A DNA stretch of 34,402 bases from an uncultured Planctomycetota bacterium. Lineage in GTDB: Bacteria > Planctomycetota > JAJSAM01 > JAKLKS01. The stretch is taken from NCBI GenBank assembly GCA_964633345.1, contig CAZWGT010000002.1:1-34402 (forward strand), given 5' to 3'. Shown piece by piece: positions 4,268 to 30,917 of this stretch; position 1 is the first letter of the stretch; every line of letters starts with the position of its first letter. A program made the translations under genes and the position numbers. The notes under the pieces are model-generated. The model saw only the letters and a list, made by a program, of their open reading frames with translations, was not told the DNA's origin and ran no database searches.

Positions 4268-4983
4268 CACAGCCTCCCGATGCGGTGGAGGCGCCACTCC
4301 GCGCGGCACTGCTGGTTGTACACGCCGACCACCCCTCGCAGGTCCCGGTCCGCGGGGACCTCGAAGGTCAGGCAGGCGCGCCCGTCGAGCCATACGTCGA
4401 TCGTGTGGTCCCGGACGGTGAACCCGAACCGGTGCCACGCTCCCGGGTCGACGGCGGAGATGTCCTTGCGGACCAGCTCCCTCTTCCCGGCGTCGGAGAC
4501 CGAGAAGACGACGAGGGCGCTCTTCTGCACGAAGACGGAGACGAAGTCCTCCGACCTCCCGCCCTCCTTCTCGGCGAAGGTGAGGCCGGTCAGCCAGTTG
4601 GACCCGTACTCCTCCTGGAGGCGGAACTCCATCTCGTAGGCGAAGTGGTTGCCGGGGTCGGTGGAGGACTTGGGCACCAGGCGGTCGGCGGTCTTCGAGT
4701 TGAAGATCATGTGCCCGTCCTTCATCTCGGCCATGTGGTCGGCCACGAAGCTCCTGCGCGAGAGGAAGTCGATCCAGGTCTTCACCGCGCGGAAGGGCGG
4801 CGGCACGCCGTCGTCCACCGGGCTCTCCGGCGCCTTCCCCCCGAGGTCGGCGTAGAGCTTCCGCGCCGCTTCGTGGCCGGGCCGGATCTTCAGGAGCATC
4901 TCCAGGGCCTGGCGTCCGGCCGCCGGCTCCTTCTCCGCCCGGGCCGAGGCGAACTTCATGACGTCCGCCGCGAAGGCATCCAC
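4267..4983 (-). CDS. ConA/DUF1080-like domain protein. This is the downstream part of a TPR + ConA-like gene interrupted by an in-frame TAG; protein-like sequence continues upstream to 5199
   Basis: Minimal ORF from GTG 4983. Stop TGA 4269-4267 overlaps the ATG of the next gene (ATGA). The C-terminal half (WIDFLSRRSFVADHMAEMKDGHMIFNS...WHRFGFTVRDHTIDVWLDGRACLTFEV) resembles the neighbour's lectin-like domain. The same frame is open and TPR-like from 5199 down to 4984. Confidence 0.65.
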   Translation of the reverse strand: MDAFAADVMKFASARAEKEPAAGRQALEMLLKIRPGHEAARKLYADLGGKAPESPVDDGVPPPFRAVKTWIDFLSRRSFVADHMAEMKDGHMIFNSKTADRLVPKSSTDPGNHFAYEMEFRLQEEYGSNWLTGLTFAEKEGGRSEDFVSVFVQKSALVVFSVSDAGKRELVRKDISAVDPGAWHRFGFTVRDHTIDVWLDGRACLTFEVPADRDLRGVVGVYNQQCRAEWRLHRIGRL

Positions 4984-5199
4984 CAGGGCGTCGTACTCCT
5001 TCTCGCCGGCCGCGAGGACGGAGACCCGCTTCTCCGCCAGAGGCTTCAGCTTCGCCTCCTCGGAGGTGGGCTTGCCGGTGCCCGCCTTCTCCCCGAGCAG
5101 GACCAGGAACTCGCGGTACGACTCTAGAGCGTCGGCCGCGGCGCCGCTGCGGTCCTGGCAGGCGCCCCTCCAGTAGACCGCCTCGATCAGGTCCGTGTC

Positions 5200-10058: not shown

Positions 10059-11042
10059 ATGAGGCGCACCCTGGCGGCCGCGCTCGCCGGGATCCTGCTC
10101 GCGGCCGCGGCCGGATCGGCCGCGGCGGCGCAGGACCCGGGCGCCGAGAAGAAGGCCAAGCAGCAGGCCGAGTTCAAGGCGAAGCTCGAGGCGAAGCTGA
10201 AGGAGCCGTGGCTCGTCGACTACGGCTGGATGACCGACTACGACAAGGCGCGGGAGAAGGCGGCGGCGGAGAAGAAGCTCATCGTCGCCTACTTCACGCG
10301 CTCCTACTCGCCCTGACCGCCCTGCGAGCAGCTGGAGGGCAGTGTGCTCTCCACCCCGGAGTTCAAGGAGTTCGCCAAGGACGTGGTCCTCTTCACCAGC
10401 ATCATGTCCCGCGTCGAGGGGGACAAGTACCCGAACCTGCTCTCCGAGAAGGGCGGGAACGGCTTCCCCTACGTCGTGGCCATGGACGCGAAGGGGGAGG
10501 TCCTCTCCGACCTGTCCTCCCGGTCGGTGGACGGGTTCAAGGCGATGATGAAGGGGGCCGCCGACTACCAGGCCCTCCGCGCGAAGAAGGACCACACGCC
10601 GGCGGAGCAGCTGAAGCTGCTGGGCCTCGACCTCGCCCGCGGCCGCATCAAGGGCCCCGAGTACCGCGAGCGGGCCGCGAAGATCGATGGCCTCGACGAG
10701 GCGGCGATCCAGGAGCGCACCGCGACGATCCTCCACCTCGACATCGCCGCCGAGCTGGAGAAGATCCGCAACGCCGGCGGCCCGGCGCCGGAACTCCGGC
10801 ACGAGGTCGGCGGGAAGTTCGCCGGGTGGCACAAGGCGGGCCTCGGCCCCAGGGACCCGCGGTACGCCGGCTCCTTCTACGAGCTCATCATGAACTACGC
10901 GGAGAAGGAGAAGGACGCCGAGCTGTTCGGCGCCGCCCTCGCGAAGCTGAAGGAGTTCTTCGGGGACCAGAAGCGCCTCGAGGGCTACTTCAAGGGCCTG
11001 CAGGAGAAGCTGGACAAGCTCAAGGCCGACGCCGGGAAGTAG
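10059..11042 (+). CDS. Secreted thioredoxin-fold protein with in-frame TGA (10314-10316) at the first position of the CxxC motif (U-P-P-C); candidate selenoprotein with a helical C-terminal domain
   Basis: ATG 10059 with GGAGGG 10046-10051. Signal peptide MRRTLAAALAGILLAAAAGSAAAAQ. Translation reads ...KKLIVAYFTRSYSP[TGA]PPCEQLEGSVLSTPEFKEFAKDVVLF...NGFPYVVAMDAKGEV (cis-Pro loop). ORFs 9303-10316 and 10344-11042 share one frame (10344 minus 10059 = 285). A hairpin lies 16 nt after the TGA. Confidence 0.65.
10333..10353 (+). promoter_or_regulatory. Candidate bacterial SECIS-like hairpin
   Basis: UGGAGGG-CAGUGUG-CUCUCCA: 7 bp (one G-U) with a 7-nt loop containing GU. The stem begins 16 nt 3' of UGA 10314-10316. 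Confidence 0.45.
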
Positions 11043-13069: not shown

Positions 13070-13160
13070 GGATCCGTTCTACCCCGGACCGTGGTAGAAG
13101 ATCCCGACTCGGCGGGCCCCACGGGTGGGGGCCGGAGGCGAACGCGGACAAGGAGGTCCC

Positions 13161-13814
13161 ATGAGGACGCGCACGGCGCTGGTCGCGATGGCGATGGTCT
13201 TCGGTCTCGGCTGGACGGCGAACCGGGTCTTCTCCCAGGACGGCGGCATGGAGGGGAAGAAGCCCGAGGCGAAGGAGGAGGAGAAGAAGGCCCCCGCGGG
13301 CCCGACCGCCGAGGAGATGGCGGCCTGGGAGAGGGCGATGACCCCGGGCGAGCCCCACAAGAAGATGGCGGCCCAGGAGGGCGCCTGGGAGTCCACCGGG
13401 AAGATGTGGATGGATCCCGCCCAGCCCCCGACCGAGATGAAGGGCGCGGCGAAGTTCCGGATGATCTTCGGCGGGCGCTACCAGATCCAGGAGTACACCG
13501 GCGAGATGATGGGCATGCCCTTCGAGGGGATGTCCATCGCCGGGTACGACAACGTCCGGAAGAAGTACTTCTCCACCTGGATCGACTCGATGGGCACCGG
13601 GGTGATGAACAGCGAGGGGACGGCCGACGAGAAGGGGACCGTGACCTACCACGGCATGATGACCGACCCCGCGACGGGCGGCGACTGCAAGGTGCGGATG
13701 GTCTTCCCCGCCGCCAAGGACAAGGACTCGATCGCCTTCGAGATGTACGTGGACGACGGGAAGGGCAAGGGCGAGGTGAAGTGCATGGAGATGAACTACA
13801 CGCGCAAGAAGTAG
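13161..13814 (+). CDS. DUF1579-like secreted protein
   Basis: ATG 13161 preceded by a perfect AGGAGG (13151-13156). Signal peptide MRTRTALVAMAMVFGLGW. Also MTPGEPHKKMAAQEGAWESTGKMWMDP...FGGRYQIQEYTGEMMGMPFEGMSIAGYDNVRKKYFSTWIDSMGTG. Confidence 0.8.
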   Translation: MRTRTALVAMAMVFGLGWTANRVFSQDGGMEGKKPEAKEEEKKAPAGPTAEEMAAWERAMTPGEPHKKMAAQEGAWESTGKMWMDPAQPPTEMKGAAKFRMIFGGRYQIQEYTGEMMGMPFEGMSIAGYDNVRKKYFSTWIDSMGTGVMNSEGTADEKGTVTYHGMMTDPATGGDCKVRMVFPAAKDKDSIAFEMYVDDGKGKGEVKCMEMNYTRKK

Positions 13815-14486: not shown

Positions 14487-15608
14487 ATGAGCCCCGGCCC
14501 CCATTCCGAGTTCGTCGCGCGATCCCTCGAGGCCTGGGAGAGGGAGGGCCTCCGCCGCCGCGTCCGGACGGCGCCCGGCCCGGGGCCGCGGACGACCCTC
14601 GACGGGCGCGCGGTGGTCTCCTTCGCCTCCAACGACTACCTCGGCCTCGCCGGGGATCCGCGCCTGGCCGCCGCCGCGGCCCGTGCCGCCGAGGAGGAGG
14701 GCTCGGGCGCCGGGGCCGCGCGGCTCATGACCGGGAGCCGCCCCTCCCACGACGCCCTGGAGCGGGAGGCCGCCGCGTTCAAGGGCGCGGAGGCGGCGCT
14801 GCTGTTCGGCTCGGGGTACGCGTGCAACGTCTCGCTGATCCCGGCGCTGGCGGGGAAGGGGGACCTCGTCGTCTCCGACGCCCTCAACCACGCCAGCCTC
14901 GTGGACGGGTGCCGTCTCTCGGGGGCGGAGATCGCCGTCGTCCCCCACGCCGACGCCGCGGCCGCGCGGGCGGCGCTGCTCCGCCCCGGGTTCCGCCGGC
15001 GCGTGCTGGTGACCGAGGGCCTCTTCTCCATGGAGGGGAGCGTCCCCGACCTCCCCGCCCTGGCGGCGGCGGCGCGGGAGGCGGGGGCGCTGCTCGTCGT
15101 GGACGACGCCCACGGCACCGGGGTCCTCGGGCCCGGCGGGCGCGGGGCCGTCGCGGCGGCGGGCCTCGCCCCCGGCCCCGACCTCCTCGAGGTCGCCACC
15201 CTCGGCAAGGCCTTCGGCGCCTACGGGGGGTTCGTCGCGTGGACCGCGGAGGGGATCGACTTCCTCCGCCACCGCGCACGGGGCTTCGTGTTCTCCACGG
15301 CCCTCCCCCCCTCCGTCGCGGCCATGGGGCGGGAGGGGATGCGGATCGCCGCGGCGGAGCCGGAGCGCCGGGATCGCGTGCTCGCCCTGGCGCGGCGGTT
15401 CGGCGGCACGACCCCCGTCGTCCCCGTGGCGGTGGGGGACGTCGCGGAGACGGTCCGCGCCTCCGAACGCCTCCTCGATCGCGGGTTCTGGGTCCCCGCG
15501 GTCCGCCCCCCGACGGTGCCCGAGGGGACGGCGCGCCTCCGCGTCAGCCTCTCCGCGGCGCACACCGAGCACGAGGTGGACGCGCTCCGGGAGGCCCTCC
15601 GTGGCTAG
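14487..15608 (+). CDS. bioF: 8-amino-7-oxononanoate synthase
   Basis: 373 aa. ASNDYLGL, GSGYACN, DALNHASL, VVDDAHGTGVLG and ATLGKAFG (PLP lysine) motifs typical of the BioF/KBL alpha-oxoamine synthase family. Operon context with bioDA and bioB. Confidence 0.9.
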   Translation: MSPGPHSEFVARSLEAWEREGLRRRVRTAPGPGPRTTLDGRAVVSFASNDYLGLAGDPRLAAAAARAAEEEGSGAGAARLMTGSRPSHDALEREAAAFKGAEAALLFGSGYACNVSLIPALAGKGDLVVSDALNHASLVDGCRLSGAEIAVVPHADAAAARAALLRPGFRRRVLVTEGLFSMEGSVPDLPALAAAAREAGALLVVDDAHGTGVLGPGGRGAVAAAGLAPGPDLLEVATLGKAFGAYGGFVAWTAEGIDFLRHRARGFVFSTALPPSVAAMGREGMRIAAAEPERRDRVLALARRFGGTTPVVPVAVGDVAETVRASERLLDRGFWVPAVRPPTVPEGTARLRVSLSAAHTEHEVDALREALRG

Positions 15609-17655
15609 GGGCGTCCTCGTCACCGGCACAGGGACCGGGGTCGGCAAGACCGCCGTGGCGGCGGCGCTGGCGCGGATCCTCCTGCGGCGCGGCCTCTCCG
15701 TCGGCGTGATGAAGCCCGCGGCGACGGGCGTGCCGCCCGACGACGACGCCGATCTCCTCCGGGCCGCGGCGGGATCGGACGATCCCCCCGACCTCGTCTC
15801 CCCGCTCCGCTTCCGTGATCCCCTCGCCCCGGCCGTCGCCGCGGACCGCGAGGGGAGGAGCCCCGATCCGGAGGCGATCCGGCGCGCCTTCGCCGCGATC
15901 GCGGGGCGCCGCGCGTTCACCGTCGTCGAGGGCGTGGGCGGGCTCCTCGTCCCCGTCGCGTGGGGGTTCACCGTCGCCGACATGGCGCGGGACCTCGGCC
16001 TCCCGCTGCTCGTCGTCGCCCCGGCGGGCCTGGGGACCCTCAACCACGCGGCGCTGACCGTGGAGGCGGCGCGGTCCCGGGGGATCCCGGTGCTCGGCGT
16101 GGTGCTCGTGCGCGAATCCGCGGGGGCGCCGGGCCTCGCCGAGGAGACCAATCCCGCGGCCCTCGAACGGTTGTGCGGGGTCCGCGTGCTGGCGGTGATG
16201 GAGCGCGTCGCGGCGGGCAGGGAGCGGGATCCCGACGCCCTGGCCGACGCCCTCGGCCCCGGCGCCGCGTCGATCCTCGCCGATGCGCTCCCCGCGGGCG
16301 GGGACGCCGTCGCCCGCTGGAAGCGCCTCGACCGGGCCCACGTCTGGCACCCGTTCACGCAGATGCAGGAGTGGACCGACCCCGTCGTCATCGAGAGGGG
16401 CGAGGGCCCGTACCTCTGGGACGTCGAGGGCCGCCGGTACATCGACGGGGTCTCCTCCCTCTGGGTCACCGTGCACGGCCACCGCACGCCGGAGATCGAC
16501 GCCGCCGTCGCCTCCCAGCTCGGGAAGCTCGCCCACTCCACGCTGCTGGGCCTCTCCAACGTGCCGTCCATCGAGCTGGCCGAGCGCCTCGTGCGCGTCG
16601 CCCCGCCGGGCCTCGTCCGCGTCTTCTACTCCGACTCCGGGTCCACCGCGGTGGAGGTCGCCCTCAAGATGGCCTTCCAGCACCAGCGCCGCCGCGGGGA
16701 GGAGCGCCGCACGAAGTTCGTCTTCCTCGAGGGCGGCTACCACGGGGACACCCTCGGCGCCGTGAGCGTGGGGGGGATCGACCTCTTCCACCGGCTCTTC
16801 CGCCCGCTCCTGTTCGCCTCCCACCGCGTGCCTGCGCCCCACTGCTTCCGCTGCCCCGTCGGGAAGACGTTCCCCTCCTGCGGGATCGACTGCGTGCTCC
16901 CCCTCGAGGAGGCGCTCCGCGACCACGGGCCGGAGATCGCCGCGGTGATCGTCGAGCCGGTGATGCAGGGCGCGGCGGGGATGATCCCCCAGCCCGCGGG
17001 ATGGCTCCCGCGCGTGGCGGCGGCGGCGCGGGCGGCCGGGGCGCTGCTCATCGCCGACGAGGTGGCCGTCGGGCTCGGCCGGACGGGGCGGTGGTTCGCC
17101 GTGGAGCACGAGGGCGTGCGCCCGGACCTGCTGGCCGTCGCCAAGGGCCTCTCCGGGGGCTACCTCCCCCTCGCGGCGACGCTCGCGACGGAGGAGATCC
17201 ACGCCTCCTTCCTCGGGCGCCACGAGGAGATGCGCACCTTCTTCCACGGGCACACCTACACGGGCAACCCGCTGGCCTGCGCCGCCGCGGTCGCCAACCT
17301 CGACCGCATGACGCGGGAGGGAACCGTCGGGGAGGCGGCGCGCAAGGGGGAGATCCTCGGCGCCCTCCTCGAGCCCCTGCGGTCGCTCCGTCCGGTGGGG
17401 GACGTCCGCCGGCGGGGCATGATGGCCGGCGTGGAACTGGTCCGGGACGCCGCCTCGCGGGAGCCCTTCCCGCCGGGGGAGCGGGCCGGCCGGAGGGTCT
17501 GCGAGGAGGCGCGGCGGCGCGGCGTGCTGCTCCGCCCCCTCGGGGACGTCGTCGTCGTGATGCCGCCCCTCGGGACGCCGGACGTCGTGCTGGGGGAGAT
17601 CGCCGGGGTCCTGGCCGCGTCGATCCGCGCGGCACTACCGGAGGAGAACCGATGA
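15601..17655 (+). CDS. bioDA: Bifunctional dethiobiotin synthetase (N-terminal) / adenosylmethionine-8-amino-7-oxononanoate aminotransferase (C-terminal) fusion
   Basis: GTG 15601 overlaps the bioF stop by 8 nt. N-terminal P-loop VTGTGTGVGKT and VEGVGGLLVP (BioD). From about residue 240: HVWHPFTQM, DSGSTAVEVALKMA, DEVAVGLGRTG and AKGLSGGYLPL (PLP Lys), which mark BioA. Single uninterrupted 684-codon frame. Confidence 0.9.
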   Translation: MARGVLVTGTGTGVGKTAVAAALARILLRRGLSVGVMKPAATGVPPDDDADLLRAAAGSDDPPDLVSPLRFRDPLAPAVAADREGRSPDPEAIRRAFAAIAGRRAFTVVEGVGGLLVPVAWGFTVADMARDLGLPLLVVAPAGLGTLNHAALTVEAARSRGIPVLGVVLVRESAGAPGLAEETNPAALERLCGVRVLAVMERVAAGRERDPDALADALGPGAASILADALPAGGDAVARWKRLDRAHVWHPFTQMQEWTDPVVIERGEGPYLWDVEGRRYIDGVSSLWVTVHGHRTPEIDAAVASQLGKLAHSTLLGLSNVPSIELAERLVRVAPPGLVRVFYSDSGSTAVEVALKMAFQHQRRRGEERRTKFVFLEGGYHGDTLGAVSVGGIDLFHRLFRPLLFASHRVPAPHCFRCPVGKTFPSCGIDCVLPLEEALRDHGPEIAAVIVEPVMQGAAGMIPQPAGWLPRVAAAARAAGALLIADEVAVGLGRTGRWFAVEHEGVRPDLLAVAKGLSGGYLPLAATLATEEIHASFLGRHEEMRTFFHGHTYTGNPLACAAAVANLDRMTREGTVGEAARKGEILGALLEPLRSLRPVGDVRRRGMMAGVELVRDAASREPFPPGERAGRRVCEEARRRGVLLRPLGDVVVVMPPLGTPDVVLGEIAGVLAASIRAALPEENR

Positions 17656-18653
17656 ACCGCGACTGGATGGCGCTGGCGGACGAGGCGATCGCCGCCGACG
17701 GGATCTCCAGGGAGGGGGCCCGGGCGGCCCTGGCCGCGCCGGAGAGCGAGGCGTGGGCGCTGCTGGCCGCGGCGGGCCGGGTGCGGAACCGCTTCCACGG
17801 CAACCGCGTCCGCGTCCACGTGCTCCAGAACGCCAAGCTCGGCGGCTGCCCCGAGGACTGCGGCTTCTGCGCCCAGTCCTCCCGCTACGAGACCCCGGCG
17901 GGCCGCGCCCCGCTCCTCGACCGCTCGGCCATCGTGGACGGCGCCCGCGAGGCGGCCGCGGCCGGGGCGTGGAAGTTCTGCATCGTCACCGCCACCCGCG
18001 GGCCCTCGGACCGGGACCTCGACGTCCTCTGCGACGCGGTGCGGGAGATCAAGGCCACGATCCCCGTGAAGGTCTGCACCTCCCTCGGGCTCCTCGACGG
18101 GCCGAAGGCGAGGCGCCTGGCCGAGGCGGGCGTGGACCGCTTCAACCACAACCTCGAGACCTCGCGCCGCCTCTTCGGGGAGGTCTGCACGACCCACACC
18201 TTCGACGACCGCGTGGAGACCCTCCGCCACGCGCGGGAGGCCGGGATGGAGGCCTGCTGCGGATGCATCGTGGGCATGGGGGAGACGGACGAGGATCTCC
18301 TCGACCTCCTCTGGTCGCTGAAAGAGGTGGGGCCCACGTCGATCCCCGTGAACTTCCTCGATCCCCGCCCGGGAACGCCGATGGCGGGCCGTCCGCGGCC
18401 GACCCCCCTGCGCTGCCTGCAGGTCCTGTCCGTCTTCCGCCTCGTCCATCCCCGGCCGGATCTCCGGGTGGCCGGAGGACGGGAGGTGAATCTGCGCGCG
18501 CTCCAGGCGGCGGCCCTCGTCGCCGCGAACTCCATCTTCACCAACGGCTACCTGACGACGCCGGGAAACGAGGCCTCGGCCGACCTGCGGATGATCGAGG
18601 ACGCGGGCTTCGCGATCGAGACCGTGATGGAAGGGGAGGCGCGGGCGGTGTGA
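17652..18653 (+). CDS. bioB: Biotin synthase (radical SAM)
   Basis: ATG 17652 overlaps the bioDA stop (ATGA). CPEDCGFCAQS is the CxxxCxxC cluster motif. Also VCTSLG, FNHNLETS and CCGCIVGMGET. Confidence 0.92.
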   Translation: MNRDWMALADEAIAADGISREGARAALAAPESEAWALLAAAGRVRNRFHGNRVRVHVLQNAKLGGCPEDCGFCAQSSRYETPAGRAPLLDRSAIVDGAREAAAAGAWKFCIVTATRGPSDRDLDVLCDAVREIKATIPVKVCTSLGLLDGPKARRLAEAGVDRFNHNLETSRRLFGEVCTTHTFDDRVETLRHAREAGMEACCGCIVGMGETDEDLLDLLWSLKEVGPTSIPVNFLDPRPGTPMAGRPRPTPLRCLQVLSVFRLVHPRPDLRVAGGREVNLRALQAAALVAANSIFTNGYLTTPGNEASADLRMIEDAGFAIETVMEGEARAV

Positions 18654-18675
18654 GGGGCGGCGGTATCATGCGCCC

Positions 18676-19971
18676 ATGATCAGGACCCTCCCCGCGCTCC
18701 TGCTCCTCCTCCTCGCCGCCGCTCCGCCCGCCGCCGCGCAGGACGAGACGCGGTCCAGCGCCCACTACACCTGGAACATCCACGGGAACTGCCCCGAGGC
18801 GCCGGAACTCATGAAGGTGGCCGAGGCGGCGTGGGGCCAGTTCGCGGCCTACTTCGGCGCGCGCCCGGGCGGCAAGCTCGAGATCGAGTACTTCGAGAAG
18901 TCCTCCGACTACGCCTCCATCCTCACGGGGAAGGGGGCCGACGTGGAGGGGGCCGGGGGCGTGCCCTCCCAGGGCCGCTACTGGTACGAGAACAAGAGGG
19001 TCTACCAGCCGCGGATGCAGCGCCCCTGGGAGACGCGGCAGTGGCTCATCGTGAACCTCGCCCAGCAGTTCATGGCCCTCGGCGTCGTGGGGAAGGGGAA
19101 GAACGTCCCCTCCTGGTACTCCGCCGGGATCACCATGCGCTTCGCCCTCCACCGCTGGGACGGGAAGACCCTCGTCACCGGCGTGGACGACGATCCCTGC
19201 GCGTGGGGGCGCTCCATCGCCCAGCTCGCCGACGGCGCGAGGGAGGGGAAGTGGGACCCCATGGACGCGGTGAGCTCCGACTCCAAGGTCTACGTCGAGT
19301 GCTGGGCGGCCGTGCAGTTCCTGCTCTCGGGGGCGGACAAGGGGGCCATGGCGAGGTTCAAGGCCCTCGAGCGGAAGATGTGGGACGGGATGGAGTCCCG
19401 CGAGGCCGCGACGGCCCTCCTCGGGGCGGACCCGAAGAAGATCCGCAAGGCCTCCCGGGACTGGATCGTCGCCCTGCCCCGGCCGTGGAATCCCCTGGCG
19501 GACATCTGGGAGCGCACTTCCGAGGACTCCTTCCTCGCGGAGCCCTTCAACAAGGACCGCCCCGCGATCCTCCTGCGGGAGGCCGACGCGGGCCCCTCGC
19601 CCTTCATCGAGGCGACCATCGCCCCCGCCGAGAAGGGCGAGGGGGGCCTGATGATCGGCTTCACCGAGGCCGCGGGCGGGCTCGTCGTCGCGTGGTCCCC
19701 CTCCTCGAAGATCGAGCTTCTCCGGGTCGCCGGCCCCGGCAGGGGCCAGGTCCTGGCGTCCGCGGACGGCCCCCCGGGCGCCGAGGCGAGGCTCCGCGTC
19801 GAGATCGCGGGCCCCGTGGTGAAGGTCCTCCTGGCGGGCAAGGAGGTCCTCACCTGGACGGGCGAGGGGGAGTCGGCTCCTTCCGAGGGGAAGACGGGCC
19901 TCCTGTGCGACGGCGGCAAGGTGCGATTCACCGGGGTGAAGGGGTCCGACGCGAAGGTCGGGAAGAAGTAG
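18676..19971 (+). CDS. Secreted protein: N-terminal DUF1570/peptidase-MA-like domain with degenerate metal site + C-terminal ConA-like beta-sandwich
   Basis: Signal peptide MIRTLPALLLLLLAAAPPAAAQ. SSAHYTWNIHG opening. VNLAQQ sits where HExxHQ would be expected, and SWYSAGITMRFA where W..EG.A.YFE would be. The C-terminal beta-rich region is GLMIGFTEAAGGLVVAWSPSSKIELLRV...RLRVEIAGPVVKVLLAGKEV. Confidence 0.75.
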   Translation: MIRTLPALLLLLLAAAPPAAAQDETRSSAHYTWNIHGNCPEAPELMKVAEAAWGQFAAYFGARPGGKLEIEYFEKSSDYASILTGKGADVEGAGGVPSQGRYWYENKRVYQPRMQRPWETRQWLIVNLAQQFMALGVVGKGKNVPSWYSAGITMRFALHRWDGKTLVTGVDDDPCAWGRSIAQLADGAREGKWDPMDAVSSDSKVYVECWAAVQFLLSGADKGAMARFKALERKMWDGMESREAATALLGADPKKIRKASRDWIVALPRPWNPLADIWERTSEDSFLAEPFNKDRPAILLREADAGPSPFIEATIAPAEKGEGGLMIGFTEAAGGLVVAWSPSSKIELLRVAGPGRGQVLASADGPPGAEARLRVEIAGPVVKVLLAGKEVLTWTGEGESAPSEGKTGLLCDGGKVRFTGVKGSDAKVGKK

Positions 19972-19990
19972 AATCCCCGCGGGAGGCGGC

Positions 19991-20839
19991 ATGAGAGGAC
20001 CGTCGGCGGTGCTCGCCCTGGTGCTGGCCGCGGCGGCGGCCCCGGCGGCCGATCCGCTCCACGGGGATCTCCCCTTCCTCCCGTCCCTGGAGTCGGCCCG
20101 CGCCGAGGCGGCGTGGCGGGGAAAGCCGCTGCTGGTCTTCTACTGCCTGCGGGACGACGCGATCTCCCTGAGCGTGGCGGACTCCACCTTCCGGGACGCG
20201 GCCGTGGCCGTCCGCGCGTCGGCCTTCGTGCCCGTGCTGGTGGACGCCGAGGCCGACGAGCGGTTCGGCCTCGAGCACTCCGTGAAGACCGTGCCGACGA
20301 TCCTCCTCCTCGACAGGGAGGGGAGGGAGGCGGGACGGTCGCCGGGGAACGCCGGTCCGGCGGATGTCCTGCGCGTGCTGGACGAGGCCCTGCGGCGCAC
20401 CGGCCCCCGGCGGCCGACGAAGGAGGCGCGCGCCGTCGAGAAGGCGGCGGCGGACCTCGAACAGGCGCTGGCGAAGGGGGAGTGGAGGTCGGTCCTCCGG
20501 GCCGTGGTCGCCATCGAGCGAATCGCGCACCCCGGACCGGAGGCGGACGCGGCGGCGAAGGCCCGTTCGGCCGCGGCGGACGAGTCGGCCCGGCGCCTCG
20601 CCGAGGCGAAGAAGCTCCTGAAGGACGGCCGGCGCGACGAGGGGCGGGCGGCGCTGCGCCGCATCGTGAAGGACTTCCCCGGCCTCGACGCGGCGGTGGA
20701 GGCGAAGAACCTCGTCAAGGAGATGGACGGCCCCGCGCCGGGGGACGCGGACGGCGGGGGCGGCGGCGGCTCGAAGGGAAAGCACGGGAGGCGCGGCTCC
20801 GGGAGGCGCCGGGCGGATCCCGGCGGCTCCGGAGACTAG
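19991..20839 (+). CDS. Secreted thioredoxin-like fold protein lacking the CxxC motif, with a helical/TPR-like C-terminus and a Gly/Arg-rich tail
   Basis: ATG 19991 preceded by GGGAGG. Signal peptide. SLESARAEAAWRGKPLLVFYCLRDDAISLSVADSTFRDAAV...VKTVPTILLLDREGRE follows the Trx_7/DUF255-like beta-alpha-beta layout with a cis-Pro (VPT) but no CxxC. Confidence 0.7.
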   Translation: MRGPSAVLALVLAAAAAPAADPLHGDLPFLPSLESARAEAAWRGKPLLVFYCLRDDAISLSVADSTFRDAAVAVRASAFVPVLVDAEADERFGLEHSVKTVPTILLLDREGREAGRSPGNAGPADVLRVLDEALRRTGPRRPTKEARAVEKAAADLEQALAKGEWRSVLRAVVAIERIAHPGPEADAAAKARSAAADESARRLAEAKKLLKDGRRDEGRAALRRIVKDFPGLDAAVEAKNLVKEMDGPAPGDADGGGGGGSKGKHGRRGSGRRRADPGGSGD

Positions 20840-23593: not shown

Positions 23594-23684
23594 GGCGGCC
23601 GGCCTCCGCCCCGCCCGATTCTCTCCGCCGGTCACGCGATCGAGGGCTACCCTCACCCGGCCGGGACCCGGGAGCGCCGGAATC

Positions 23685-24971
23685 GTGGTCGTCGAAACGG
23701 AACAGGGGACCTTCCTCTTCTTCTCCGCCCTCCTCGGGAGGGCGGTCCGCGACGATTCCACCGGGCGCGCCCTCGGCACCCTCCGCGAGATCGCCTGCCG
23801 CACGGACACGGCGTATCCCCGGGCCGCGCGCCTGTTCTGGCGGAGGGGGTGGTTCGGCCCCTGGTCGGAGGCCCCGTGGTCCGCCGTGCGGGCCGTCGGC
23901 GCCGAGGGGATCCGCGTCGACCCGTCCGGCGCCGCGGAGCACCCGGGCCGGCCCGAGGGCCGATCCGGGGAGGTCCTCCTCGAGTGCGACGTCCTCGACC
24001 AGCAGGTCGTGGACACCGACGGCGCCAAGGTCGTCCGGATCAACGACGTCCACCTCTTCCTCCACGGGACGGACGCCTACCTCGCCCACGTGGACATCGG
24101 CACGCGCGGGCTCCTGCGGCGCCTGGGGTACGAGAGGGTCGTCGCCGAGGGGATCCGCCTGCTCACGGACGTGAGGCTCAAGGAGCACCTCGTCGCGTGG
24201 AAGCACCTCCACCTCCTCCCGTCCGGGGTCGAGGATCCCCACCAGGCCGCCATGGTGAAGCTCAACGTCTCCCAGAGCCGGATCACCGACCTCCACCCGG
24301 CCGAGGTCGCCGACCTCCTCGAGGAGCTCGACGCCAGGACCCGGGACCGCGTCTTCGACGCGCTCCCCACGGAGGCCGCGGCCGAGGCCCTGGCGGAGGC
24401 CCGGCCCGGGGTGGCGCAGGAGATCCTCGGCTCCGTGGAGGAGGGCAAGGCCGCCGACATCCTCGAGGCCATGGACCCCGGCGAGGCGGCCGGCGTCGTG
24501 CGCGACATGCCGGGGCCCGAGGCGGAGACGCTGCTGGAGGCCATGGAGCCGGAGGCGGCCGAGACGGTGCGCGCCCTCCTCTCCCACCCTGAGGAGTCCG
24601 CGGGGGGCCTCATGACGACGAGCTACCTCGTCGCCGATTCATCCTGGACCGCACTCCACGCCATGCAGGAGGTGCGCCGCCGCTCCGCCGAGGCCGAGGT
24701 CTTCACCTACCTCTTCGTGCTCTCGTCGGAGGGCGTCCTCGTCGGCATCGTCAGCCTCAAGCAGCTCTTCCAGGCCCCGCCGAGGGTCGCCATCGGCAAG
24801 GTGATGACCACCAAGCTCGTGACGGTCCATCCCTGGACGCCGCGCCAGGAGGTCGAGCGGGTCCTCGCGAAGTACGGCTTCCGCAACGTCCCGGTGGTGG
24901 ACCGGGACGGGCGCATGCAGGGGGTGGTCCGCTTCCGCCGCATCCTCGAGACCCTGGAGCGCCGCCCGTGA
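23685..24971 (+). CDS. PRC-barrel-like + MgtE N-terminal domain + CBS-pair protein (MgtE cytosolic sensor module without the membrane pore)
   Basis: LHPAEVADLLEELDARTRDRVFDALP, ILEAMDPGEAAGVVRDMP and LLSHPEESAGGLMTTSY mark the MgtE_N domain. Two CBS-like units follow (VFTYLFVLSSEGVLVGIVSLKQL, FRNVPVVDRDGRMQGVVRFRRI). The protein ends right after CBS with no TM helices. Confidence 0.85.
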   Translation: MVVETEQGTFLFFSALLGRAVRDDSTGRALGTLREIACRTDTAYPRAARLFWRRGWFGPWSEAPWSAVRAVGAEGIRVDPSGAAEHPGRPEGRSGEVLLECDVLDQQVVDTDGAKVVRINDVHLFLHGTDAYLAHVDIGTRGLLRRLGYERVVAEGIRLLTDVRLKEHLVAWKHLHLLPSGVEDPHQAAMVKLNVSQSRITDLHPAEVADLLEELDARTRDRVFDALPTEAAAEALAEARPGVAQEILGSVEEGKAADILEAMDPGEAAGVVRDMPGPEAETLLEAMEPEAAETVRALLSHPEESAGGLMTTSYLVADSSWTALHAMQEVRRRSAEAEVFTYLFVLSSEGVLVGIVSLKQLFQAPPRVAIGKVMTTKLVTVHPWTPRQEVERVLAKYGFRNVPVVDRDGRMQGVVRFRRILETLERRP

Positions 24972-26242
24972 CGGCCGGCCCCCGCCGCCTGCGCCGCCGC
25001 CTGGCGATCCTGGTCGCCGTCGCGGGGCCGGGGATCATCACCGCCAGCGTGGACAACGACGCCGCCGGGATCACGACGTACTCCATCGCCGGGGCCGACT
25101 GGGGGACGGCCATCCTCTGGACGTTCCTGCCGATGGCGCTCCTGCTCGTCGTCGTGCAGGAGATGGTGAACCGGATGGGCGTGGTCACGGGCAAGGGGCT
25201 GGCCGACCTGATCCGGGAGAACTACGGCGCGCGCACGACCTTCCACGTGCTCGCGGCGCTGGTGTTCTCGAACCTCGGCACCGTGGTCGCCGAGTTCGCC
25301 GGGATCACCGGGGCGGCGCGCCTGCTCGGCCTCAACCCCTACCTGACCGTGTTCGGGGCGGTGCTGCTGCTCTGGGTCGTGGTCGTGAAGGGGAACCAGA
25401 AGAGCGTCGAGCGGGTGTTCCTCGTGGCGTGCCTCTTCTACGTGGCCTACGTCGTGGCCGGCGTCCTGGCGAAGCCCGACTGGGGGGAGGTCCTGCGCGA
25501 CTCCGTCGTCCCCACGCTTCCCCCGGAGGATCGGCGCGCGGCCTGGATCCTCATGGTCGTCGGGCTCGTCGGCACCACCGTCTCGCCCTGGATGCAGTTC
25601 TACCAGCAGGCCGCGGTGGCGGAGAAGGGGGTGAAGGTCGAGCAGCTGCGGTACTCGACCATCGACACCTTCCTCGGCGGCCTGACGGTGATGGTCGTGG
25701 CGGGATTCGTCGTCGTCGCCTGCTCCCGGGCCTTCCCCTTCGACGGCCCGCCGGAATCGGGCCACCGGATCGAGGGGGCCGCGGACGCCGCCCGCGCCCT
25801 CGTGCCCGTGGCCGGGGTCCACGCCGAGAAGCTGTTCGCGGGCGGCCTGCTCTGCGCCTCCCTGTTCGCCGCCTCCATCCTCCCGCTCTCCACGTCCTTC
25901 TCCGTGTGCGAGGGGCTGGGCTTCGAGACCGGCGTGAACAAGCGCGTGCCCGAGGCCCCCGTCTTCTACCTCCTCTACGGCCTGCTGCTCCTGGTCGGGG
26001 CCTGCGTCGTCTTCGTCCCGGAGTCCTGGCTCGTGCGGATCATGTTCTACAGCCAGGTGATCAACGGGCTCATCCTGCCCGTGGTCCTGTTCTTCATCGT
26101 CCGCCTCGTGGCCGACCGCCGCGTCATGGGGCCCTACGCGAGCGGCCGGGCCCTCGGGACGATCGGCTGGGTCGTGTCCGGGGCGGTGAGCCTCCTGACC
26201 CTGGTGTCCCTGGCGTACCTGACGGGGATCCTGGGCGGATAG
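24968..26242 (+). CDS. NRAMP/SLC11-fold cation transporter, non-canonical metal-site motifs
   Basis: GTG 24968 overlaps the upstream stop (GTGA). 424 aa, about 11 TM helices. GPGIITASVDNDAAGITTYS (TM1 region) and LVGTTVSPWMQFYQQ (TM6 region) align to NRAMP GPG...DPGN and GA..MPH. Confidence 0.85.
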   Translation: MTAGPRRLRRRLAILVAVAGPGIITASVDNDAAGITTYSIAGADWGTAILWTFLPMALLLVVVQEMVNRMGVVTGKGLADLIRENYGARTTFHVLAALVFSNLGTVVAEFAGITGAARLLGLNPYLTVFGAVLLLWVVVVKGNQKSVERVFLVACLFYVAYVVAGVLAKPDWGEVLRDSVVPTLPPEDRRAAWILMVVGLVGTTVSPWMQFYQQAAVAEKGVKVEQLRYSTIDTFLGGLTVMVVAGFVVVACSRAFPFDGPPESGHRIEGAADAARALVPVAGVHAEKLFAGGLLCASLFAASILPLSTSFSVCEGLGFETGVNKRVPEAPVFYLLYGLLLLVGACVVFVPESWLVRIMFYSQVINGLILPVVLFFIVRLVADRRVMGPYASGRALGTIGWVVSGAVSLLTLVSLAYLTGILGG

Positions 26243-26271: not shown

Positions 26272-26985
26272 CTACCGGGACCCGGCCCAGGCCTTCGCCT
26301 CGGGGGACCCGTACGCGAGGAGGTACTCGACGCACCGCGCGCGGTCCTCCGGCCGGAGGCGGCCCGTGGCGTCGAGGTGGCCGAGGGCCTCCGTCATCGT
26401 CACCGCGGGGAGGACCGGGACGCCGGTGTCCGCGGTGAAGCGCGCGCAGGCGTCCCTCCCGTCGGGGCCGACCTCCTGGCGGTTGACCGCGACCACGAGG
26501 GCCGGGAAGCGCACGCCGGGGACGAGGGAGCGGAGCATCTCGACCGCCTCCCGCTTGGTGGCGCCGTCGGTGAGGACGTCGTCCACGAGGGCGATGCGCT
26601 CCCCGTCCGCCGGGCGGTGGCCCACCAGGAGGGACGCGGCGGCCGCCTTCGCGGAGGCCTCCTCCCCGTGGGTCTTCCTCTCCTTGCGGTCGAAGAGGTA
26701 GGGCTTGCGGACCCCCTTCGCGGCCAGCGCCACGGCCGTCGCCACGGCGAGGGGGATCCCCTTGTAGGCCGGCCCGAAGACGGAATCGAACCCGTCGGGG
26801 CCGACGGCGTCGAGGAGCCTCCCGCCGAAGGCCTCGCCCAGGCGCAGCAGGCCCTGGCCGTCCTCCACGAGCCCGAGGTTGACGAAGGTGGGGGAGACCC
26901 GCCCGCTCTTCAGCGTGAAGGTCCCGATGCGGAACGCCCCGCACTCCCACAGGAAGTCGGTGAACTGCCTCTGGTAGTCCTGCAT
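26272..26985 (-). CDS. pyrE: Orotate phosphoribosyltransferase
   Basis: 237 aa. FTLKSGRVSPTFVN, GPAYKGIPLA and the PRPP-binding loop ALVDDVLTDGATK. Confidence 0.88.
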   Translation of the reverse strand: MQDYQRQFTDFLWECGAFRIGTFTLKSGRVSPTFVNLGLVEDGQGLLRLGEAFGGRLLDAVGPDGFDSVFGPAYKGIPLAVATAVALAAKGVRKPYLFDRKERKTHGEEASAKAAAASLLVGHRPADGERIALVDDVLTDGATKREAVEMLRSLVPGVRFPALVVAVNRQEVGPDGRDACARFTADTGVPVLPAVTMTEALGHLDATGRLRPEDRARCVEYLLAYGSPEAKAWAGSR

Positions 26986-27787: not shown

Positions 27788-29365
27788 ATGGGCTCCATGC
27801 TCCGACACGTCGCCGCCGGCACGGTCCTGCTCGGGCTCCTCCTCGCCCCCGTCCCCGCGCCCGCGGCCGAGGAGGGGGACGCCTTCACGGCGCTCGTGAA
27901 GGAGTTCGTGCCCGGGGTCTCGGCCCACGCCGAGCCCGGGAGCCGCGTCTCCCTCGTCACACGCCTGGCCGGCTACGACGACCCCGACGGGGCGAAGCTC
28001 CTCGTGGCGGGGCTGGCGGCCCTGGTGGACCGGCTGGACCGCGACCTCGCGAACTACACCGCCCTCCGCAAGCGCTACGAGGAGGTCAACGTTCCCCTCG
28101 ACGTGGCCAAGGACAACTACAGGACGCGCACGGAGCTCCAGAACCGCCTCGCCGAGGAGGACCAGCGGCAGCGGGACGACGCCCGGGTGCTGGAGGCTCT
28201 CCGCAAGGCGATGGGGAGGTACAAGGACGCGCAGGCGCTGTCCACCCTCACCGCGGAGATCCGCAAGCTCAAGGCCTGGCGCGCCCGCGAGGTCGGGGCC
28301 GAGGGCCTCGCCGCCAACCCGGGCGGAGCCGAGGCGGCCATCCGGATGGGGAGGGAGAAGGACGACCGCGTCGCCGCCGCCGTGCTCCGCGGGCTGCGCG
28401 GCCGGAACGAGGGCTTCGTCTTCGACTTCGCGAAGGACTCCCTGAAGTCCGAGTCCTGGCCCACGCGCCTCGAGGCGGCCCTCACGCTCGAGAAGGTGAA
28501 CCAGCCCCGCATCATCCCCCCCCTCATCGAGGCCCTCGCCCGGGAGGAGGGGCGCCTCAAGGAGGACGTCCGCGACGTGCTCCGCCGCGTCACCAGCCAG
28601 AACTACGACACCGAGGCGGAGCAGTGGCGCCTGTGGTGGGTGGAGAACAAGAAGTCCCTCGAGGGGGAGAACCCCACGACGGCCCTCTTCGGCACCTTCA
28701 AGGGCCGGGTCCCCCAGCCGGAGAAGAAGTCGGTCTACGGCATCGAGACGCGCTCGCGGAAGCTCCTGTTCGTCATCGACACGAGCGGGTCCATGCGGGA
28801 GCCCATCACCCAGGCCAAGGGGACCCCGACGGACGTCAGCGCGGACGACCTCGAGAACATGAACATGACGAAGATCGACCGGGCCAAGAAGGAGCTGAAG
28901 CGGGCGCTCCGCGCGATGGAGCCCGACGCCTCCTTCAACATCATCGCCTTCGGGTCGAACGTCGTCTGCTGGAAGGAGAAGCCGGCCAGGGGGGACATGA
29001 CGACGAAGAACGAGGCGCTCACCTTCGTGAACGACCTGGAGGCGGCCGGGGGGACCTGGGCCTACGGCGCGTTCCAGGAGGCGTTCCGCCTCGCCGGCAT
29101 GGGGGCCCTCGACAAGTACTACGACCCGGCGGTGGACACGATCTACTTCATCTCCGACGGGGCGCCGACCAACAACGACATGGACAAGCCGGAGGCCATC
29201 GACCCGGAGACGCTGCTGGCCGCGGTGCGGGAGTGGAACCGCCTCGGGAAGCTCCGGATCCACGCCATCGCCATCGATCCGAGGGCCGGGGGCGGGAAGT
29301 TCATCGACTTCATGAAGAAGCTCGCGGCCCAGAACGACGGCCAGTACACCGAGTGTGACCGGTAG
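27788..29365 (+). CDS. Secreted HEAT-repeat + von Willebrand factor A (VWA) domain protein
   Basis: Signal peptide. HEAT-like segment (WPTRLEAALTLEKVNQPRIIPPLIEALA). WRLWWVENKK motif. VWA with MIDAS LLFVIDTSGSM ... IYFISDGAPT. Confidence 0.85.
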   Translation: MGSMLRHVAAGTVLLGLLLAPVPAPAAEEGDAFTALVKEFVPGVSAHAEPGSRVSLVTRLAGYDDPDGAKLLVAGLAALVDRLDRDLANYTALRKRYEEVNVPLDVAKDNYRTRTELQNRLAEEDQRQRDDARVLEALRKAMGRYKDAQALSTLTAEIRKLKAWRAREVGAEGLAANPGGAEAAIRMGREKDDRVAAAVLRGLRGRNEGFVFDFAKDSLKSESWPTRLEAALTLEKVNQPRIIPPLIEALAREEGRLKEDVRDVLRRVTSQNYDTEAEQWRLWWVENKKSLEGENPTTALFGTFKGRVPQPEKKSVYGIETRSRKLLFVIDTSGSMREPITQAKGTPTDVSADDLENMNMTKIDRAKKELKRALRAMEPDASFNIIAFGSNVVCWKEKPARGDMTTKNEALTFVNDLEAAGGTWAYGAFQEAFRLAGMGALDKYYDPAVDTIYFISDGAPTNNDMDKPEAIDPETLLAAVREWNRLGKLRIHAIAIDPRAGGGKFIDFMKKLAAQNDGQYTECDR

Positions 29366-30917
29366 CGCCGCGTCCGGCCGGGGCCTCGTCGCGGCGATCC
29401 TCCTCGCCCTCGCCCCCTCCGCGGCCCCCGCCCAGGACGCCGACGCCCTCGCCAAGTTCCGGAGGGCCTTCGACGCGCCCGCCTCCGCCGACGCGCGGGT
29501 CGCCGCCGCCGAGGGGCTCGCCTCCGTGAAGGGGCGCAACGGCCCGGAGCTCGTCTGCCGGGCGCTGGCCGCGTCCCTCGAGAGGACCGACGCCCTGTCG
29601 AAGGAGCGCGCGAAGTACCGGGACGAGCTCGCGGTCCTGAGCGCCAAGATCGAGTCCCAGGGGAACTCGGGGACGGGCGAGGAGATCGCCCGGCAGAAGG
29701 CGCTCCGGGAGCTGGAATCGACCCTCCGGGAGAGGGGCGACGAGGAGGCCCGGGTCGAGACGGCCCTCCGGGCGGTCCTCCTCCGGTTCACCGACCCGAA
29801 GGCGCTGGAGTGGCTCGCCGGGAGCGGGATCCGCGGCAGCCCCTCGGGCGCCGTGCGCGCCGCCGCCGCCGAGGCGCTGGGGCTGTCCGGGAGCGCCGAC
29901 CCCGGGGTCCTCAAGTCGGTCCGCGGCGCCCTCAAGGACAAGGACCCCCAGGTCCGCGAGGCGGCCCTGAAGGCGGTCTCGCTGCTGGCGGCGAAGGAGG
30001 AGGAGACGCTGCGCAACCTCGCGGCCTCCCTGGAGGACTCCCGCTGGACGGTGCGCGTCGCCGCCGCCCGCCGCCTGGCCGACATGGCCACGCCCGCGGC
30101 CGTGGACCTCCTCGTGTCGCGCCTCCCCAGGGAGGAGGGGAACGAGGCCCGCATCCTCGGCGCGCTCCTCGGGGCCCTCACCGGGCAGAGGTTCGGGACC
30201 GAGGCGACCGGCTGGCGCCACTGGTGGGAGGAGAACCGGGCGGCCTTCGTCGCCGGGACGAAGGTCCTGGCCGAGGGCGCCGGCTCCATCCAGGCCGCCG
30301 ACGCCACGGCCGAGGGGGCGAACTACTACGGGATCCCCGTCGCGAGCCGGCGCGTGCTCTTCGTCATCGACCTGTCCGGGTCCATGAAGTCGCCGGGCGG
30401 GACGGACCCGAAGCTCACCAAGGAGGACGAGGCGAAGCGGGAGCTGCAGCGCTGCATCAAGGCCTTCGACCCCGCGTCCTCCTTCGGGCTCTTCTCCTTC
30501 AGCGACACGGTGCGGAAGTGGAAGCCCGGGATCGTCAAGGCCGGGGCGCCGGAGAAGGAGGACGCGCGGAAGTGGGTGGAGGCGCAGGCGGCCAACGGGT
30601 GGACGAACACGTACGCCGCCCTCGAGGAGGCGATCCGCGCCTCGGCGGCCGACCCGAAGAACAACATGGGGGAGGACTACGGCCTGTTCGCCGACACGAT
30701 CTTCCTCCTGACCGACGGGAGCCCGACGGACTCCACCGGCAAGGCGGAGGACAAGAACGGGAAGCCGGAGTGGCCGCGGGTCCTCGAGGCCGTGCGCGGC
30801 TGGAACCGGGAGAAGCGCGTGGCCATCCACTGCATCGGGGTGGGGCCGGCGGTGAACGACGCGTTCCTCGCGTCGCTCGCGTCCGAGAACGGCGGGACGT
30901 ACGTGAGGGTGAAGTGA
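29355..30917 (+). CDS. Secreted HEAT-repeat + VWA domain protein (paralogue of the preceding gene)
   Basis: GTG 29355 overlaps the previous gene by 11 nt. Signal peptide. HEAT-like units (DPQVREAALKAVSLL, RWTVRVAAARRLADMATPAAVDLLVSRL). WRHWWEENRA. VWA with VLFVIDLSGSM ... IFLLTDGSPT. Confidence 0.85.
   Translation: MTGSAASGRGLVAAILLALAPSAAPAQDADALAKFRRAFDAPASADARVAAAEGLASVKGRNGPELVCRALAASLERTDALSKERAKYRDELAVLSAKIESQGNSGTGEEIARQKALRELESTLRERGDEEARVETALRAVLLRFTDPKALEWLAGSGIRGSPSGAVRAAAAEALGLSGSADPGVLKSVRGALKDKDPQVREAALKAVSLLAAKEEETLRNLAASLEDSRWTVRVAAARRLADMATPAAVDLLVSRLPREEGNEARILGALLGALTGQRFGTEATGWRHWWEENRAAFVAGTKVLAEGAGSIQAADATAEGANYYGIPVASRRVLFVIDLSGSMKSPGGTDPKLTKEDEAKRELQRCIKAFDPASSFGLFSFSDTVRKWKPGIVKAGAPEKEDARKWVEAQAANGWTNTYAALEEAIRASAADPKNNMGEDYGLFADTIFLLTDGSPTDSTGKAEDKNGKPEWPRVLEAVRGWNREKRVAIHCIGVGPAVNDAFLASLASENGGTYVRVK

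Follow-up and report, generated by a model that had tools for sequence, protein, structure and literature searches.

The window analysed here is a stretch of 34,402 nucleotides (nt; 72.5% GC) from an uncultured Planctomycetota bacterium (CAZWGT010000002.1, forward strand). It carries two overlapping genes, gene 1 (23685-24971, + strand), encoding a soluble protein of 428 amino acids (aa) with a PRC module, an MgtE_N domain and a CBS pair, and gene 2 (24968-26242, + strand), encoding a 424-aa transporter assigned to the NRMT clade of the SLC11/NRAMP family. The two genes are a new, divergent instance of a pairing first described in 2014, and the region is a two-gene operon of an already known type. 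The clade was named NrmT by Shin et al. (2014, PLoS Genet, PMC4072509), who described most NrmT genes as adjoining a gene for an MgtE cytosolic domain, with pairs in Clostridium acetobutylicum (Ca_c0685 and Ca_c3329) and Acidobacterium capsulatum (Acp2976/Acp2977). The role proposed there for the partner, as a speculation, was 'cytoplasmic feedback regulation of transport', with action as a chaperone as the alternative. The idea that a sensor protein gates the permease, put forward in an earlier note made from the sequence of this DNA, is thus a rediscovery of the hypothesis published by Shin et al. (2014). Later SLC11 phylogeny papers (Cellier 2022, 2023) make no mention of the NRMT-linked MgtE-like protein, nor is it discussed in later NRMT structural papers, and our literature search found no paper after 2014 on its role. 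We show that gene 1 encodes a conserved cytosolic protein (hereafter, the partner) that accompanies most NRMT genes, and that the PRC module is always present in it, a detail which is new here.

Conservation of the pair was surveyed from the transporter side with an NRMT profile, using one genome per species. The best 80 loci were kept, and these came from Acidobacteriota, Desulfobacterota/Syntrophia, Omnitrophota, Zixibacteria, Planctomycetota, Firmicutes and several archaea; 71 of them had at least 1.5 kb of upstream sequence. An MgtE_N-type partner open reading frame (ORF) was present upstream, on the same strand, in 60 of the 71 NRMT loci (~85%), the two genes being separated by -4 to about 100 nt. 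Of these 60 partner-bearing loci, 59 had all three parts, namely the N-terminal module, MgtE_N and the CBS pair. When the check was made from the partner side, all four distant homologues of gene 1 (32-38% identity) were directly followed by an Nramp gene. The pairing from which the earlier note had argued is thus strongly conserved across genomes. Two close relatives of the window (L092 and L094; 70% and 78% identity) kept the 4-nt overlap as well as the same flanking genes. Eggerthellaceae, including Paraeggerthella, encode proteins 91-92% identical to EleNRMT, the NRMT of known structure, and there too a 450-aa gene with PRC, MgtE_N and CBS parts lay 3-4 nt upstream (L086-L091). As compared with the operons of Shin et al. 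(2014), the window has the same genes in the same order, the gene for a soluble protein homologous to the cytoplasmic part of MgtE being immediately followed by that for an NRAMP-related transporter, and it shares the lack of an M-box riboswitch with the A. capsulatum pair. It differs in the divergence of its sequences, the 4-nt overlap, a rare serine (S206) in the transporter and two glycines (G266 and G270) in the partner.

Gene 2 matched the Pfam family Nramp (PF01566) at 4.8e-82 and aligned over its full length with 7qia, the structure of the Eggerthella lenta Mg2+ transporter EleNRMT (E 6e-95, 322 bits; 43% identity over 403 aa). Its matches to MntH structures reached only about 70 bits (best 71; E ~1e-18) and that to the plant aluminium transporter NRAT (8ont) 38.5 bits, and it failed the MntH model NF001923, scoring 108.8 bits against a cut-off of 430. 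By these comparisons gene 2 is placed in the NRMT clade rather than with MntH or NRAT, and the Mg2+-transporting, NRAMP-related clade of known structure, to which the earlier note had referred, is indeed the one that it matches. None of the 80 top NRMT matches taken from species-representative genomes exceeded 53% identity to gene 2, and therefore the lineage of the window is poorly represented.

NRMTs are defined by DxxG on alpha-1 and TxxA/T on alpha-6; in addition, Trp replaces the first His of alpha-6b, and alpha-10 has a Gln that is needed for transport (Ramanadane et al. 2022, eLife, PMC8806188). Gene 2 carries D31-A-A-G34 on alpha-1 (25058-25069, within VDNDAAG at 25049-25069), T203-T-V-S206-P-W208 on alpha-6 (25574-25591, within GTTVSPW at 25571-25591) and, by alignment, Q363 on alpha-10 (26054-26056), the equivalent of EleNRMT Q379. 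The canonical DPGN of the first transmembrane helix and A..MPH of the sixth are thus absent, NDAAG and TTVSPW standing in their place; the alignment bore out the view that the Asn, Ala/Met and His of the canonical site had been replaced, with the Asp of the first helix retained. Across 91 related NRMT ORFs, D31, G34 and Q363 were invariant, while T203 and W208 were each found in 90. Position 206 was Ala in 82, Thr in six and Ser, as in the window, in three, and A33 was likewise rare, Gly occupying that position in 81 of the 91 relatives. S206 falls outside the literal A/T consensus, but it is still small and without a thioether, and gene 2 is therefore best classified as an NRMT bearing a rare but conservative Ser. 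The H+-pathway residues are lost, W208 taking the place of the alpha-6b His. E109 on alpha-3 was kept, as in EleNRMT. Gene 2 and EleNRMT thus have in common the clade, the full-length alignment, the DxxG and TxxA-type site, the Trp for the first alpha-6b His and the alpha-10 Gln, and they differ in S206 as against A227 and in A33 as against Gly; EleNRMT was studied without a partner. With the canonical MntH/NRAMP Mn2+/Fe2+:H+ symporters gene 2 shares the LeuT-type fold, PF01566, the Asp of the first helix, the alpha-3 Glu and the alpha-10 Gln, but other residues stand in for the DPGN Asn, for both Ala and Met of AxxM and for the His of alpha-6b.

EleNRMT carries Mg2+ and Mn2+, does not carry Ca2+ and shows no H+ coupling; Q379 is required for transport and T224 is specifically needed for Mg2+ (Ramanadane et al. 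2022). By homology with EleNRMT, we infer that gene 2 encodes a proton-uncoupled carrier of hydrated Mg2+, and also of Mn2+, which would not be expected to carry Ca2+. The substrate suggested by the earlier note, Mg2+ or another hard cation, holds in so far as the clade carries Mg2+, but it was drawn too narrowly, since Mn2+ is carried as well.

In gene 1, Pfam recognised MgtE_N at aa 203-304 (24291-24596; 7e-24) and two CBS domains (4.6e-17), the CBS pair spanning aa 306-424 (24600-24956) by Pfam, MgtE alignment and structure superposition. The MgtE transmembrane domain PF01769 gave no match to gene 1 in the Pfam scan. The MgtE equivalog TIGR00400 scored 133.5 bits against a cut-off of 232.75 and was covered over model positions 23-253 of 450. 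There was no transmembrane-like segment in the protein, its sole hydrophobic stretch being the CBS beta core. Gene 1 aligned to residues 25-254 of Thermus thermophilus MgtE, from which it follows that the protein ends at the boundary between the CBS pair and the plug helix, and not, as had been proposed, exactly where the MgtE pore begins. The AlphaFold2 (AF2) model of gene 1 had a predicted local distance difference test (pLDDT) score of 86.6, and its C-terminal half superposed on the MgtE cytosolic domains 8gpv and 2yvy with TMt 0.86 (TM-score normalised by target length) and a root mean square deviation of 1.5-1.8 A. The MgtE_N region is strongly acidic, with 27 D/E against 8 K/R in aa 196-305. 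Thus, in comparison with the Mg2+ channel MgtE of T. thermophilus (2yvx, 2yvy, 5x9g), the N domain and the CBS pair superpose and the N domain is acidic in both, whereas the partner is without the plug helix and the C-terminal, five-helix transmembrane pore and has an extra N-terminal PRC module.

This module is about 180 aa long, or ~40% of the partner protein. In gene 1 itself the Pfam PRC match (aa 10-49) was, at 18.4 bits, below the cut-off of 21.2 bits, but in homologues it rose above the cut-off (25-36 bits), some of them with a second such stretch, and 65 of 75 family members matched at E <= 0.01. A separate AF2 model of aa 1-180 (pLDDT 90.2; predicted TM-score, pTM, 0.84) gave a barrel followed by a shorter beta domain and two helices. 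Foldseek returned only MgtE and CBS matches for the full-length model; for the model of the N-terminal module the best match was the photosynthetic reaction-centre H subunit, the archetypal PRC barrel, with a probability of 0.96-0.98 and a weak E value of 0.18-0.5. The first beta-barrel, of PRC-barrel fold, covers aa 9-86 (23709-23942), as taken from the AF2 model, Pfam PRC in homologues and Foldseek, and the second, shorter beta domain with its two helices covers aa 96-171 (23970-24197), as taken from alignments and predicted secondary structure. The most conserved motifs of the entire partner protein lie in this second half of the module, namely the near-invariant LDxQ(I/V)VD..G.KVVR(V/I)ND (aa 104-121) and D(I/V)G.RGLLRRLG.E (aa 137-150, nt 24093-24134). 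A linker of low confidence (aa 178-195, 24216-24269; pLDDT below 50) joins the module to the MgtE-like half. The domains named for gene 1 by the earlier note were all found, and its 'PRC-barrel-like repeats' was a fair description, given Pfam in the homologues and the AF2 model. No mention of the PRC module occurs in the passages of Shin et al. (2014) consulted here, and our literature search found no paper combining PRC-barrel, MgtE and CBS.

The Mg2+ sites of T. thermophilus MgtE, as assigned by Maruyama et al. (2018), were mapped on 75 members of the partner family. The position of E59 (Mg7) was D/E in 69 of the 75 (E234 in the window) and that of D247 (Mg4) was D/E in 65 (E422). Asp was kept at D91 (Mg4) in 54 members and at D95 (Mg6) in 72, the window having G266 and G270, respectively. 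The two Mg5 ligands were lost family-wide, D226 being Ala in 68 members (N401 in the window) and D250 Ala or Leu in 57 (E425 in the window); this loss is coherent because Mg5 bridges to the plug helix, which is absent from these proteins. The likeness to MgtE therefore extends, in the window, to acidic residues at the E59 and D247 positions and, in most of the family, also to D91 and D95, while the difference lies in the missing Mg5 ligands and in the two glycines of the window copy. Judged from these residues, cation sensing appears plausible for the partner family and somewhat less certain for the window copy.

A profile of the N-terminal module was run against 1.84 billion representative proteins and gave 2,978 cluster-representative matches. 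Among the best 150 of these were eleven proteins of 593-656 aa (P0269, P0285, P0296, P0313, P0347 and P0360 among them), all with 4-6 transmembrane-like segments at the C-terminal end, and PF01769 was present in four of the six long forms scanned against Pfam. Long forms such as P0296, P0285, P0313, P0269 and P0347 match gene 1 in their N-terminal module, MgtE_N and CBS pair, a part over which P0347 and P0296 share 42% identity, but they run past its end point into a plug-helix-like EEESAEDL segment and 4-6 transmembrane segments, where gene 1 stops. Two of the long forms lie directly upstream of an NRMT gene, in L095 (3501-6759) with a gap of 209 nt and the motifs NDAGG and GCTIAPW, and in L100 (792-3915) with a gap of 7 nt and the motifs NDAGG and GTTIAPW. 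The long form of L097 had no NRMT neighbour, and in L099 the contig ends too soon for a neighbour to be seen. Since the same PRC module occurs in transmembrane-bearing relatives, two of them upstream of NRMT, the partner belongs to a PRC-bearing MgtE lineage and is best read as an MgtE from which the pore has been lost. A rough neighbour-joining tree, with T. thermophilus MgtE as its root, placed ten of the long forms together and the remaining one beside the root. The tree fits a PRC-bearing MgtE lineage that was first linked to NRMT and later lost its pore in most lineages, although it is only suggestive. We also considered the PRC module, with its RGLLRRLG helix, as an NRMT-specific docking device. 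This was weakened by the occurrence of the same module in transmembrane-bearing MgtE-like proteins, at least one of them (L097) without an NRMT neighbour; the module is not an invention specific to NRMT docking. No description of PRC-bearing long MgtE proteins was found in the literature searched.

A link to Mg2+ was seen in some relatives at the level of the RNA leader. Of 44 related species-representative loci, four, from Geobacteraceae, Firmicutes and, in two cases, Acidobacteriota, had an M-box (RF00380) scoring 115-136 bits immediately 5' of the partner gene (L016:2434-2600, L036:2420-2590, L040:2456-2640 and L045:2113-2289). The M-box upstream of the pair reproduces an observation of Shin et al. 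(2014), and the loci that bear it were no closer to the window than the other loci. The M-box was also considered as a substitute for the partner in NRMT loci that have none, and this was rejected, no M-box being present in any of the 11 such loci. In the Eggerthellaceae loci L086 and L089 a tRNA gene lies further upstream of the pair, and neither of these two loci has an M-box.

Four grounds led us to propose that the partner regulates NRMT: the gene order is conserved, translation is coupled, the architecture of the sensor is retained, and an uncoupled Mg2+ uniporter would need a brake. We regard a regulatory subunit of NRMT as an even prospect, and gating in trans as plausible. As such a subunit the partner would probably work as a dimer held together by its CBS domains, in the manner of MgtE. 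Its acidic N-domain/CBS interfaces would be neutralised by Mg2+ of the cytosol, or possibly by Mn2+ or an adenine nucleotide, and the compact state so formed would bind NRMT from the cytoplasmic side and limit transport into the cell. The outcome would be feedback control of a uniporter in which accumulation is not limited by H+ coupling, and the 4-nt overlap of stop and start would, by translational coupling, help the two proteins to be made in matching amounts. A bolder version, which we put forward only tentatively, is that the protein with PRC, MgtE_N and CBS parts serves NRMT as an obligate cytosolic gate acting in trans, in a family where a PRC-bearing MgtE channel became linked to NRMT, then lost its pore and was kept as a dedicated regulatory subunit.

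Several observations weigh against regulation by the partner. It was absent, within 4 kb, from 11 of the 71 NRMT loci, mostly of Terriglobia (L020, L027, L046, L049, L055, L058, L065, L077, L079, L081 and L084). Transport occurs without the partner in C. acetobutylicum NrmT (Shin et al. 2014) and in EleNRMT (Ramanadane et al. 2022), and co-expression of the partner left the rescue by A. capsulatum NrmT unchanged (Shin et al. 2014). In the full-length AF2 model of gene 1 the domain arrangement is uncertain (pTM 0.53). The window copy has Gly at the equivalents of T. thermophilus D91 and D95 (aa 266-270, nt 24480-24494), and therefore its Mg2+ sensing may be altered. Neither an M-box nor any other Rfam family was detected in the window at gathering thresholds, nor around the leader at E <= 10.

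Some of these points bear equally on what the pair transports. It may be mainly an Mn2+ uptake system, as was inferred for A. capsulatum, with a partner that senses Mn2+ or another signal and not Mg2+; we consider this unlikely, though it is compatible with regulation. The NrmT of A. capsulatum, likewise without an M-box, rescued an Mn2+-transport mutant fully and an Mg2+-transport mutant only partly (Shin et al. 2014), and EleNRMT carries Mn2+ as well as Mg2+. The missing M-box of the window, the rare site-adjacent residues A33 and S206 of gene 2 and the loss of two MgtE Mg-site aspartates from the partner point in the same direction. However, T203 is present, and its EleNRMT equivalent T224 is the residue specifically needed for Mg2+; the rest of the NRMT site is conserved, there is no Met as a soft ligand to favour transition metals, and M-box-controlled pairs occur among equally distant relatives.

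The partner could also have no part in gating, and be a cytosolic buffer of Mg2+ or other metal, a chaperone, or the CBS-dimer mate of a full-length MgtE encoded elsewhere, co-transcribed with NRMT through shared Mg2+ homeostasis. Such a role seems rather improbable to us. Shin et al. (2014) offered a chaperone as the alternative, NRMTs are active on their own in vitro, and the full-length PRC-bearing MgtE-like proteins that adjoin NRMT in L095 and L100 indicate that linkage is possible between independent transporters. The tight and widespread linkage of the pair, together with the conserved overlap, nevertheless fits a stoichiometric complex better, and no match to the MgtE transmembrane domain was found among the 22 window ORFs scanned against Pfam. 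That gene 1 is a decaying, functionless remnant of a truncated mgtE would agree with its end where the MgtE plug helix would start and with the existence of relatives that retain the transmembrane part. The pore-less form, however, is full length across many phyla including archaea, 112 of the 120 homologues listed for gene 1 being 400-449 aa long and 2,978 cluster representatives matching the module profile; the motifs are near-invariant, the fold is confident, the coding signal is strong and the coupled start of gene 2 is conserved. A remnant is thus extremely improbable, being effectively refuted by this conservation.

Both ORFs, the GTGA overlap and the peptides quoted in the earlier note were confirmed in the sequence. 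Gene 1 starts with GTG and stops with TGA, gene 2 starts with GTG, and stop and start overlap by 4 nt in GTGA (24968-24971). The GTG at 23685 is the earliest start possible after an in-frame stop, and the start of gene 2 is likewise the most upstream possible; the gene 1 start is common to close homologues, which are 427-428 aa long and cover 99-100% of the query. A Shine-Dalgarno-like GGGAG (23670-23674) was read 10 nt 5' of the gene 1 GTG, and a GGAG (24956-24959), within the end of gene 1, 8 nt 5' of the gene 2 GTG. The GC content at third codon positions (GC3) was 0.91 in gene 1 and 0.87 in gene 2; the overlapping ORFs in other frames are compositional artefacts of high GC. The 91-nt leader showed no marked structure (z = +1.33). 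Around the operon, a scan for a sigma-70 promoter and for an intrinsic terminator consensus found neither, a result that is uninformative at 72.5% GC. On the 5' side the pair is flanked by an M1-peptidase-like/TPR gene and on the 3' side, after 29 nt, by a convergent phosphoribosyltransferase gene. These flanking genes are unrelated to the pair, and the unit is therefore a two-gene operon.

The convergent phosphoribosyltransferase (PyrE-like) gene of the window lies at 26272-26985 (- strand). In the close relative L092 a PyrE-like phosphoribosyltransferase gene (7100-7547, - strand) is also convergent 3' of the pair, past an intervening TPR gene. In the Smithella/Syntrophales loci a PyrR-binding leader lies on the minus strand, divergent, just 5' of the partner gene (L008:2445-2547, L023:2442-2546, L037:2425-2527 and L047:2442-2549). 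Genes of pyrimidine and phosphoribosyl pyrophosphate metabolism thus recur beside the pair, perhaps by coincidence.

Elsewhere in the window, the ORF at 15013-17655 (+) has a dethiobiotin-synthase-like AAA_26 domain and a class-III aminotransferase domain and looks like a BioD-BioA-type fusion. Tandem paralogues at 27788-29365 and 29316-30917 (+), overlapping by ~50 nt, each carry HEAT repeats and a VWA domain, and the ORF at 13098-13814 (+) encodes a DUF1579 protein. This protein, the GC content of 72.5% and the presence of a Planctomycetia locus among the best NRMT matches give a hint of Planctomycetota origin. The ORFs at 18628-19971, 19940-20839, 4267-5199 and 10317-11042 had a strong coding signal (GC3 0.93-0.99) and no Pfam match.

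The window itself makes the role of the partner no more tractable than the existing model systems do. What the survey does is to sharpen the question raised in 2014, as the partner occurs with ~85% of the sampled NRMT genes, and also with close relatives of EleNRMT; it further adds the PRC-barrel module and the NRMT-linked, transmembrane-bearing relatives of the partner. If the bolder version, that of an obligate gate, holds true, the ligand sensor of a channel would have been re-used to control an unrelated transporter of the LeuT fold, and the published structures and kinetics of NRMT would represent only half of the native system. A partner that is a true gate would also explain how cells avoid the cytoplasmic overload that an uncoupled Mg2+ uniporter may otherwise cause.

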